The translations under genes were made by a program, and so were the position numbers. The notes under the pieces are model-generated. The model did not search any database. It had not been told where the DNA came from and saw nothing but the letters and a program-made list of their open reading frames with translations. This document shows, piece after piece, positions 11,924-16,460 of a stretch of 64,000 bases of DNA; position 1 is the first letter of the stretch; every line of letters starts with the position of its first letter. This stretch comes from Convolutriloba macropyga (Eukaryota): contig NC_134469.1 of NCBI RefSeq assembly GCF_964194025.1, forward strand, positions 27,590,001-27,654,000. Reading direction: 5' to 3'.

Positions 11924-13449
11924 TATCTGAATATTTTACCACAGCAGTTCTTCAATTTTTAATGCAGGAAACAAAAATTAAGCTATATCGTGTTCCTTGA
12001 ATCTGATTTTAGCCAAATTTTCATAATTACTGGGCAAAATCAAAATAAAACATGAGAAAAACAAATGAATAGTTAGCTAATTGGAAAACTGTTTTCCTAT
12101 TTAATTTACCTTATTAGTGCCTAATTTTCTGACGCACGAAACAGCAATTAAACAAATCTCAGCTTGCTCCAATTGCGATTAGTCAATTAAAATTACATAC
12201 TGTTTTTTTCTGTTCTTCTGTTGGTGCTTCAGCAATAGCTCAATTCTGATTGATATCACATTTCATTAGGTGTAACAAAAACATTTTTGGCAATCGCACC
12301 CTTTTATTGGTCAACGAGACTCAGTGATTACAACTTTTTGTTAAAACTCCTCGCACATTTGTTAAACTCCATGTTAACATTGTCGAACCCAATTTTTGAT
12401 ATCAGTCCGTTCTTGCATGAAGAATAAATTCTGGTAAACAATTTTGACACGACAATAACTTTGGAATCAGAAACACAGTTATGGTCAGTAATAAACTTTG
12501 AGATGATCATCAAGCAGAAAAAGATATAAACCACAAAACCATATGATGAATTCAACCAAAGTACTCGTCTTTTCGGTTCCCGAAAACGCTAAACTAAAAC
12601 GCGACAACATCTATATATTCCATTTGTGCAAATTGACCAACGCACCCAACAAAAACTATAAACTAATTAGATTAGTCTACGCTTGGAATTTCGTGTAGCT
12701 TAAAATCATTGAGCTTTTTCTCAAAACGGAATGAGAAAGATAATAACTGCCAGAATAAAGATTCAAAACGGACTGAAAATTGAAGGATAACATTTCTGAA
12801 ATTTCCATCAGTAGACGGGGATTGTAACAGTACAAGCTTTTTAAACTGCCAAATCTTGTCTAGAGAATGAGAGATTGCTGAAAAACACCTACTCATACGG
12901 CAACTGCTCCCAAGAGCGCGCCGCAGAATGGGCCTAGACATATAATTTTCAGACCACCTTGACTAATATAATATAATGATTACCTGAATGGTGACGGCGC
13001 TTGAGTTATAGCATATAAAAGTGATCAAAGGTGGGGGCGTTCTACTTGTCGTTACCAAAAAGTACGACATAGAGCAGAATAATAATAACAAATATTATTG
13101 TAGCGTCTGCGATGGACAATGTATTCTGAGGTGTCTGTAAAACAATGAAGTCTCCATTAGCAGAAATTGCCAGTACTACAATTTAATGGCAAGGGGTAAA
13201 ATATCAAATTCCTTGAGTTTGTCAAGTGAATCAAAGGTGGAAAATTATCACTGAAGGACAAAATAAGAACCAAAAATGGTACTTCAATTGAAAAACACCC
13301 GGAAGCCGGGAATCTCAAGCCTGAAAATATTTTTGCCGAGAAATCTCAAAATCTATCTACCATCAGATCATCTTTGACAAAATTCATGGCAAAGCCATCA
13401 AACCAGCACCTTTTTGAACGCACGGAACTCATGGTGCATTGGAACTTAA

Positions 13450-15300
13450 TGCTGACAAATGGAGACAACTCCTGAAACCTTTAGAACAAAAAGTGACCAA
13501 CCTTCTAGAATTCTAAAAAACACAACTCTCTACGGCACAAAAACGCGGGATTGAACATGCCATCTTTGAACGTTGTGATCATCTTTTATGCAAGATAAAA
13601 CAAAAGTCTTGTATTATCTACCGGACACGTATTATATCATGAGAGCTTTAAAATCCACTTAAATTACTGCATGTTTCAAGCTGCATACACAGTCAGTGGC
13701 CTAAAAGAACGCACATGGTGGGACGACTCAGTTTTTTTTCAAGAAAACTCGCAATTGATTCCCACGTACTATACACTTACCAGCGAAGCCTGTAGCAAAC
13801 TGCTACAAGAGATTTCGGTAAACTTACCGGGGTTTGGAAATGAAAAATTTAGGTTCGAAACCACTCTATTGAGAAAGCTACAAGAGTCAAAAACAGAAAT
13901 CAAAATTAAAACAAAAATAGGGAGCGCCTTTATGAAAGACGGGAACAATAAAGTTGTAAAATTTGCTTATCCAGTAGCTTGGCAAACCCCAATGAAAAAA
14001 ATATTACCGGTAGTGTAGTTATCAACGCAGAAGTAACACTCGGAAAAATCAACGCGGAAATATTACAAACAGAAAAAGGATCAAAGATTAAGTTCCTAGA
14101 CCCATTTGGGAACCAATCATTTCATTCCTGGAACCGAGATAGAATCGAGCTTGATTATATCCAATGCAGGGTCCAAAAAGGAGATGTAACAAAACTGTCA
14201 AATCTAGATGAATTCTCGGAAGAATACACAGAAGAGTTGATTGCTGTGGGTAATCATCAATATGTGATGGGCGAGACCACTGGTAAAACAAAATTTGTCA
14301 TACAAGTTTTGAGCGAGGAATTCAGAGTAAACAATCTGGTGGTAAATAAAACAAACCATCAAAACGTCTATTTTTACCAATTTACCCTCGATATAAATTC
14401 TCAGCAGCCAACATAAACTGTAATTAATCAAGATGTCAACAGAAGTGGTTTAGATGCGTTATTTGTCCAAGATTTTAATAGTCTACTTGCAATTCTTGAC
14501 GAAATGTCAAATCTGAGATATAGAATGAAGAAAACTTATAGACAAAACGTATTGGCTTCAATGGGGAACGGTGATTCGCATTCTCTTTTCATTGGTAAAG
14601 ATGGAGTCATCGGACTGCATGCACAGTCAGCTTGTGCAAAAATAAAAGTAGAATTAACTGCCCTAAATTACTGCACTGAGGAAGTACCGATTATTGTAAG
14701 AGAAAAAGATAATCTGAGCTACGTGCGCTATATGAACCCGATATCCAAGGTTTCCTTTAGAAATTTTACGCTTATAAAGTGGAACCCATTGTTACCTAAT
14801 GTATTCCAACTAGGTGTTGGTTCTTGGATAGCGTTTAATCGAAACCTTATGATAGTAGAAAAACCACAAGTGTTTTCTTATCTTGAGGAACCCAAACGTG
14901 AAGTCCCTTTTTTTAAGGAAGTTTTCGATGGTTTTTTCACAGAGAAGCAGCTAGAAGAAAGTCGACTAACTCAATTGTATAAACACAGTCGACGAACGAT
15001 AACAGGAAGAAAAGTTTTTCTTTAGCAAATGGAAAGTATATACATGAACAGCTATTAGGCTTCAACACATACACCAGTGATTTGAATTGACATAAAAATC
15101 CATGGATTAAGCCATGGAAAGAAACATTTTGAAAGTTTGTCATTTAGTAAGGGAATTGAACCTAACAAAAATGACATTATTTTTACTGCAAAAATTCTAG
15201 TATTGTGTTGAAGACTAATTTTATCAACTAAGTTATTTTTGAAAGGTGCTCAGTCAAGAATGGCACTACAGCCGATTAACCCGTTAATCGAACTTAATTA
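13450..15300 (+). pseudogene. Decayed viral-type glycoprotein (chuvirus G / gB-like class III fusogen), env-like
   Basis: ORFs 13671-14018, 13979-14416 and 14504-15025 are frameshifted pieces. CAKIKVEL...CTEEVPI...YMNPISKV...NPLLPNVFQL..GSW...DGFFTEKQLE follows the C..V.....C..ELPV...P.SR...C..LLP..Y....W...GIYT..L pattern of chuviral glycoproteins. Ends approximate; may begin near 13080. Confidence 0.7.
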
Positions 15301-15513
15301 TATAACCGTTCTGGAAAATCAACAGTGAAAACAAAAACAAAACAAAATGTTGAAACAAAAGTAAGCGAGTTGTCGGATACCGACAAAACGGCTTTTGAGC
15401 GGGGGCTGTTAGCCAAAAAAAAACAAATTTTAGTGGGAACATTTTAGTTGAAACATTTTCCAACGTCAAAAGAATGTCTGGATTGATGTTCAATCTCTTA
15501 AACATGTCTAATA

Positions 15514-16080
15514 TTGGTTTTTTTAGAAAGCGAAATAGAACCAGAAGTGGGCGATTGTCTATATTATCTGCCGCATTTGTACGAAGTAAAAGCACTTGTC
15601 CGACGATGGGTCTATAGAATCTGCGGGGTCAAAACCCGTTTTAAAACGATCATGGCACAGGATGAATTATACCCAACAACACTAACCCAGAGACCGCCTA
15701 TTACTACGCAGGAATGCAGCCGGATGAAAGTCCGATTACAAAACTGCAAAAAGCTGGGAGTTGCTTGCTTGCAATTACAGGAGCAAATTAACAGCGTACA
15801 ACAGGAAAACGGTATGCTACAAGGGCAAGTTGTTGAGTTAAAGCAACAACTAATCGTTGCTGAACAGCTACGGGAACACTTTCGTGCTAGAACGGAAGCT
15901 AATAATAATTTAGTTGAGTTGGAATGCCAACTCCAGCAAATGCGGCTCGACTGCGAGTCAGCAGGAACTGAATCAGACGCATTGTCTGTGGAGCTAAAAT
16001 CAGCTCTTAGAAAACTCGTTGAATACCAGGGGACCTGGAAGCAGCACGTAAAAAAGTTTCAAAAACGATTTCGAGGGTAA
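15514..16080 (+). CDS. Coiled-coil accessory ORF of the decayed retroelement (probably N-terminal to the J-domain)
   Basis: 188-codon ORF with heptad-rich LQEQINSVQQENGMLQGQVVELKQQL...; lies between the glycoprotein and the J-domain. Confidence 0.5.
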   Translation: MVFLESEIEPEVGDCLYYLPHLYEVKALVRRWVYRICGVKTRFKTIMAQDELYPTTLTQRPPITTQECSRMKVRLQNCKKLGVACLQLQEQINSVQQENGMLQGQVVELKQQLIVAEQLREHFRARTEANNNLVELECQLQQMRLDCESAGTESDALSVELKSALRKLVEYQGTWKQHVKKFQKRFRG

Positions 16081-16176
16081 GAAAATTAGAGTTAAAAATA
16101 GAGGCGGAGATAACGCCAAAGAGCTCACTACAGGACGACTACATGAGATTGAGAAAAAGTTACCGGTACAAGAGCA

Positions 16177-16362
16177 TTGTCAATATAAGATCTGCTTTGG
16201 ATCTCACCCACTGCAACGATTGAGGAAATCCAACGGTGATTCGAACAAATGTCTCTATTGATACATCCTGATAAATGAGGCCAAACAGAGATATTGCAGT
16301 TATTAAATCATATAAGATGCGTGCTTATGGATGACGGTGCACGTAATATATACGAAACTCAT
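16177..16362 (+). pseudogene. DnaJ J-domain pseudogene
   Basis: Manual translation LLWISPTATIEEIQR*FEQMSLLIHPDK*GQTEILQLLNHIRCVLMDDGARNIYE; HPD at 16264-16272; two in-frame TGA stops; partial second copy from 19379. Confidence 0.8.
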
Positions 16363-16436
16363 GAATGGAAGTTCATGTCGATTTTTTGAAATTAATGAAT
16401 ATCGAGTTTTTGATGAGTGGAGCATTATGCTTCCAT

Positions 16437-16460
16437 GGGGGAAGGCAGTGTAGTGACCCT
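16437..16460 (+). promoter_or_regulatory. Putative PPT and start of a 3' LTR (GGGGGAAGGCAG|TGTAGTGACC)
   Basis: Purine tract followed by TG at 16449; junction resembles the gcag|tgtcatgacc junction of the Gypsy element at 61955; no matching 5' LTR found. Confidence 0.55.

Follow-up and report, generated by a model that had tools for sequence, protein, structure and literature searches.

The window analysed here, a stretch of 64,000 nucleotides from the Convolutriloba macropyga genome, almost certainly contains at 13607-16934 a decayed Ty3/Gypsy LTR element, of which only the 3' half is present and in which a class III env is followed by a coiled-coil and J-domain gene (ORF-J), a polypurine tract (PPT) and the 3' LTR. 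Taken as a whole, it is probably best explained as the dead remnant of a Gypsy element whose intact relatives encode gag-pol, a predicted class III env and a protein with a coiled coil and a J-domain that likely recruits Hsp70. A gB-type env in a Gypsy element is already known, and so is the presence of two env types in one species, because F-type and gB-type elements have been reported together (PMC13524379). The class III env extends this published class to another host. The new part is the conserved, selected coiled-coil and J-domain gene that has been added to a gB-type errantivirus. The original prediction under-weighted this gene, which is the less ordinary part of the element.

The Remnant in the Window

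The features of the remnant and its surroundings are listed below in window coordinates.

13045..13606, + strand: 5' part of a non-LTR retrotransposon, covering the N-terminal region of its RT, into which the LTR element inserted and which is not env; collinear by blastx with LINE ORF aa 180-434, best E=3e-9
13607..15486, + strand: decayed class III (gB/chuvirus G-like) env, with the N-terminal ~63 codons missing and frameshifts and stops throughout; PF24664 E=1.1e-8; 82-87% nucleotide identity to 23 other long copies
15508..15526, + strand: branch-point/acceptor-like motif (CTAAT...TTTAG) 5' of ORF-J, splicing predicted; AG in 12/12 A1 and 19/19 A2 copies shown
15535..16395, + strand: decayed ORF-J, with a small N-terminal beta region, a long coiled coil and a C-terminal J-domain; the start codon is gone, the frame is broken in several places and the end is approximate; 70% amino acid identity to the open 294-aa copy at L032
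16264..16272, + strand: HPD motif of the J-domain
16437..16448, + strand: PPT, in the same position relative to the 3' LTR as in the other copies shown
16449..16934, + strand: 3' LTR with TG...TA ends; it is ~60 bp shorter than the LTRs of sister copies and 86-89% identical to the 3' LTRs of six such copies
16935..17219, + strand: 3' part of the non-LTR element that was interrupted, from its endonuclease region, the first four bases being the presumed target-site copy; tblastn E=3e-12, LINE aa 902-1003
19379..22540, + strand: tandem duplicate (98%) of 16218-19379, with half a J-domain, the PPT and a second LTR copy at 19610-20092

Window 13045-13564 is collinear with residues 180-434 of an intact non-LTR ORF that includes an RT, and 16922-17219 aligns with residues 902-1003 of the same ORF. 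Because pieces of this ORF flank the window element on both sides, the LTR element must have landed in a LINE, presumably an RLE/CRE-like one, and a single deletion then took the middle of the LINE together with the 5' LTR, gag-pol and the start of env. The partial tandem duplication came later. The LTR at 19610 was considered as the partner of the one at 16449 and rejected, since it belongs to the 3.16-kb duplicate. The missing 5' half was found neither in the window nor in the 40 kb upstream. The window copy is dead: its ORF-J has no start codon, it contains several stops, and comparison with three sister copies shows about 15 insertions or deletions relative to each.

The original prediction read the frames at 13080-15300 as a chuvirus/gB-like glycoprotein. 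This stands for 13607-15486, with the PF24664 match at 14417-15022, but fails for 13080-13606, which is collinear with the non-LTR RT ORF and has no listed family match upstream of 13598. A genome search with window 12800-16220 as the query returned at least 51 matches (40 of 144 candidates scored). Among the matches listed, 23 other places align over at least 2.3 kb of the window element with 82-87% identity. Apart from the window itself, 50 matches were listed, and all of them stop short of the sequence upstream of window 13598. The proposed PPT/LTR junction between GGGGGAAGGCAG and TGTAGTGACC is real, the LTR beginning with TGTAGT at 16449. Its likeness to the LTR start of the window's other Gypsy element is limited to a short motif (gcag/TGT..TGAC), and the self-BLAST listing contains no match between the two LTRs.

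LTRs and Pol of Families A1 and A2

In the window's family, A1, an LTR pair is present in 7/10 fetched loci. The six pairs measured are 90-98% identical, with LTRs of ~545 bp and TG...TA ends, and an exact 4-bp target-site duplication (TSD) borders four of the six evaluable pairs. Env is preceded by RT, RNase H and integrase and followed by ORF-J. Next to the 5' LTR, on its inner side, the sequence is complementary to tRNA-Ser(GCT) at the tRNA's 3' end, a pattern found 50 times in the genome and 0 times for the control, and tRNA-Ser(GCT) was present in all five loci scanned for the primer-binding site (PBS) complementary pattern. An array at G000:C10:2701272-2801477 holds ~46 tRNA-Ser(GCT)-like copies of the family's primer.

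A search with ORF-J as the query gave at least 141 matches (133 of 1828 candidates scored), and those listed include many open 283-aa frames, ~35% identical to the query, from a younger sister family, A2. Seven of ten fetched A2 loci have LTR pairs, with an exact 4-bp TSD in 4/7. Copies such as L085/L086 possess a 1686-aa gag-pol, a 689-aa env, a 283-aa ORF-J and 617-bp LTRs that are 99.8% identical and bordered by a 4-bp TSD. Between the two families, identity is 74% for RT-RH, 38% for env and 33% for ORF-J. The gene order of the family is gag-pol, env, ORF-J, between paired LTRs with a tRNA-Ser(GCU) primer site and a 4-bp TSD. The remnant's other copies are in this way linked to LTRs and to pol.

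The best PDB match of RT-RH is the Ty3 RT (E=1e-85). The characters of Ty3/Gypsy elements are present in the order gag-PR-RT-RNase H-IN, the Ty3-type RT and the C-terminal module of the integrase, and family copies have paired LTRs, a PBS, a PPT and a short TSD, of which the window copy retains only the PPT and the 3' LTR.

The LTR termini differ between the sister families, being TG..TA in A1 (L041/L042) and TA..CA in A2 (L085/L086), while in L079/L080 the genes are those of A2 and the ends are of the TG..TA type. In L032 and L044, further elements (minus strand) lie within or next to the A1 3' LTRs, and an A2 env is present in the L032 one.

Class III env

The env of family A is a predicted class III fusogen of the gB/chuvirus type. 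The match of window 14417-15022 to PF24664 (Monjiviricetes_fusion) lies above the curated cut-off, family copies match PF24664 too, and homology to the family env spans ~13607-15486 of the window in several frames. A natural intact A2 env was modelled with AlphaFold from a 32-sequence alignment (pLDDT 63, pTM 0.38). In Foldseek, the listed PDB matches of this model were all herpes gB (best HSV-1 gB, E=4.5e-13), and the model also matched negative-strand RNA virus glycoproteins, those of chu-, xinmo- and qin-like viruses among them (top E=5e-28 to 1e-24); the global TM-scores to the top matches are 0.17-0.29, and the match does not fix the domain arrangement. The A2 env is a separate ORF after pol with a hydrophobic N-terminus and a C-terminal TM segment, and together with the gB-like fold of the model these are the characters of HSV/gB-type errantiviruses. 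A T-rich AG that precedes env is predicted to be splice acceptor-like. The domain match, the Foldseek matches and the LTR pairs of family copies together bear out the earlier proposal that an LTR retroelement with a class III fusogen is represented here by its 3' half.

A PF24664 env is also encoded by at least two more Gypsy families of the genome, B and C; it is only ~20% identical to that of family A, and both families are without a J-domain. Their post-env ORFs (284 and 611 aa, at L011/L052:1154-2005 and L068:1017-2849) have a coiled-coil-like end. In family B, pol and env are separated by ~4 kb. In another element, which has 673-bp LTRs, a PAN-domain frame (L069:7400-8059) precedes the gB-type env; the stretch fetched contains no long pol frame.

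The original prediction also proposed that two unrelated env types occur in this genome. At the sequence level they do, since the env of the window's other Gypsy element has no similarity to the A2 env (best E=0.79) and no PF24664 match, but the identity of that second env is less firm. All eight of its phmmer matches are fusion glycoproteins, the best being a weak match to a pneumovirus-type F0 (E=0.008), and a furin-like site followed by a hydrophobic stretch is visible. A profile search was empty, Pfam gave no F match, and the F-type label is weakly supported.

The other Gypsy element, at 50052-62310, contains an antisense 331-aa frame without a Pfam match between pol and env (57564-58562, minus strand). 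An intact-looking BEL/Pao element without env occupies 760-8145, with a 2040-aa ORF, identical 202-bp LTRs and a 5-bp TSD. Old inverted similarity (~70%) connects 8788-11923 and 27347-30282 in several blocks ~15-21 kb apart. Host-like genes are represented by a B-box protein frame at 25169-25942 (minus strand) and a CwfJ-family frame at 32424-33722 (plus strand).

ORF-J

J-domains and their HPD motif act in the activation of Hsp70. The coiled-coil ORF and the J-domain that had been noticed as successive ORFs are both present in the window, and they are one frameshifted gene, which forms a single 294-aa frame in L002/L032. The J-domain matches PF00226 with E=1.6e-10 in the L032 copy and E=8e-14 in A2. 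From the structural model and Pfam, the protein consists of a short beta-rich N-terminus, a 140-residue helix and the C-terminal J-domain, and the helical J-domain with its HPD matches PDB J-domains with E=3e-9. No hydrophobic segment was found in the protein, no chromatin-reader or nuclease domain was detected, and the N-terminal domain matched no Pfam family or fold.

ORF-J is open in 19 of the 22 loci examined, most of those used for the selection test having been picked because the ORF-J search listing showed them open or nearly open, and the HPD is present in 17 of the 19 open frames. It is kept in 9 of the 11 A1 copies that cover it and in 44 of 65 database copies covering the motif, and it is missing in two decayed copies of a more divergent subfamily. 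In 25 pairs compared between A2 subgroups, dN/dS lies at 0.19-0.31; the pair L080/L098 gives 0.86. Changes common to several copies have a pN/pS of 0.15 vs 0.78 for singletons (Fisher p=3e-9). This is the pattern expected of a gene that would be selected during replication and decay after insertion, and on these sequence comparisons ORF-J is very probably a selected gene of the element.

A CTAAT-like...AG motif lies 5' of the ORF-J start codon in both A1 and A2. Four contig sets cover the element evenly, and no GT..AG joint is present among the 15 of 122 shown, a result that does not bear on splicing.

Possible Function of ORF-J

The element would replicate by tRNA-Ser-primed reverse transcription, env and ORF-J would be made from spliced subgenomic RNAs, the splicing itself being a prediction, and env would let particles pass from cell to cell. 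ORF-J is likely to be a working Hsp70 co-chaperone, judging from its domains. It would act as a soluble adaptor in which the N-terminal domain binds a client, the coiled coil oligomerises and the J-domain fires Hsc70 on the client. The most likely client, a guess with about an even chance of being right, is the Gag/RNA particle formed by the element itself, as it assembles or uncoats. Host silencing factors are a second choice and a rather doubtful one.

In the corresponding alternative, which we consider unlikely, the element is the same but ORF-J is an anti-silencing factor that does not serve particle assembly; Hsp70 would be diverted or redirected by it from complexes that silence through small RNAs or chromatin. 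The lack of a membrane segment would suit such a role, and a host J-domain protein, SILENZIO, acts with Hsp70 in the silencing of plant transposons (PMC8616336). Against it, the protein has no detected chromatin-reader or nuclease domain and evolves under purifying selection without fast turnover. Still less probable is a structural, matrix-like role, in which ORF-J would be retained because of its coiled coil and the J-domain would be a passenger. While the coiled-coil-like ends of the post-env ORFs of families B and C, which have no J-domain, and the missing HPD of the two most divergent copies examined are consistent with this explanation, A1 and A2 have both retained the J-domain and its HPD despite an overall identity of 33%.

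It is extremely improbable that the window element is a BEL/Pao carrier like Anakin, or that a chuvirus inserted alone next to an LTR unrelated to it. The env family is indeed that of mosquito BEL/Pao elements (PMC7642597; PMC13524379), and the original prediction drew this analogy, which does not hold for the window family because its pol is Ty3/Gypsy. A BEL/Pao backbone is ruled out by the Ty3 RT match, by the absence from the intact pol of Peptidase_A17, DUF1759 and DUF5641, all three of which are present in the window's own BEL element, and by the lack of a BLASTP match between the A-family pol and that element. The position of env between integrase and ORF-J, inside LTR pairs, argues against a lone insertion. 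The preferred reading remains a Gypsy element whose ORF-J likely recruits Hsp70.

Comparison with Known Systems

Chary and Hayashi described 1,512 Ty3/Gypsy elements from across the metazoans that possess an env of the F type or the HSV/gB type (eLife 2026; PMC13524379). The family A elements share with their HSV/gB-type 'ancient errantiviruses' the Ty3/Gypsy gag-pol followed by a gB-like env, the LTRs and the tRNA primer site, but differ in having a J-domain gene, as their account includes no J-domain or fourth ORF (PMC13524379). The words DnaJ, J-domain, chaperone and accessory do not occur in the main text of that paper, nor DnaJ in seven of its supplements (PMC13524379). Xenacoelomorpha and Chaetognatha are absent from its list of surveyed groups (PMC13524379). 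The present host may fall outside the survey. A COX1 on a small contig reads under mitochondrial table 5, which would be acoel-like, but fragments of it on the chromosomes are only 72% alike and its assignment to the host is uncertain.

Anakin, a mosquito BEL/Pao element with a chuvirus glycoprotein, resembles family A in the class III chuvirus-like env inside LTRs, but its backbone is BEL/Pao and its abstract describes no J-domain ORF (PMC7642597). The chuvirus-like glycoprotein of mosquito BEL elements has also been found beside a gypsy pol (PMC13524379). LTR elements of bdelloid rotifers with extra ORF3s are likewise Gypsy-type elements bearing captured non-env genes (PMC5408684). Their cargo, a GDSL esterase or a DEDDy nuclease, replaces env, whereas that of family A is present in addition to env; the text available as PMC5408684 mentions neither DnaJ nor chaperone. 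In the literature searched, with subscription papers and Repbase outside its scope, no J-domain gene in a retrotransposon was found, and the literature search found no paper on acoel env. No relatives were confirmed among metagenome and viral contigs. There is an even chance that these elements represent an undescribed lineage of 'complex' enveloped Gypsy elements, which would encode their own Hsp70 co-chaperone as a fourth gene, expressed from a spliced RNA, and whose host belongs to an animal group that the errantivirus survey does not include.

Viruses encode J-domains as well, an example being the T antigen of polyomaviruses, which are DNA viruses, with an N-terminal J-domain and known clients. 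Family A would resemble them as a mobile genome that encodes an HPD J-domain to use host Hsc70, a likeness drawn by analogy; the J-domain is N-terminal in T antigen but C-terminal in ORF-J. Accessory genes that commandeer Hsp70 are known from DNA viruses. As a small soluble protein, ORF-J is suited to asking which step of retroelement replication or silencing needs chaperones. While env-bearing Gypsy elements have been treated as genomes of three genes, ORF-J is a selected fourth gene that would commandeer Hsp70.
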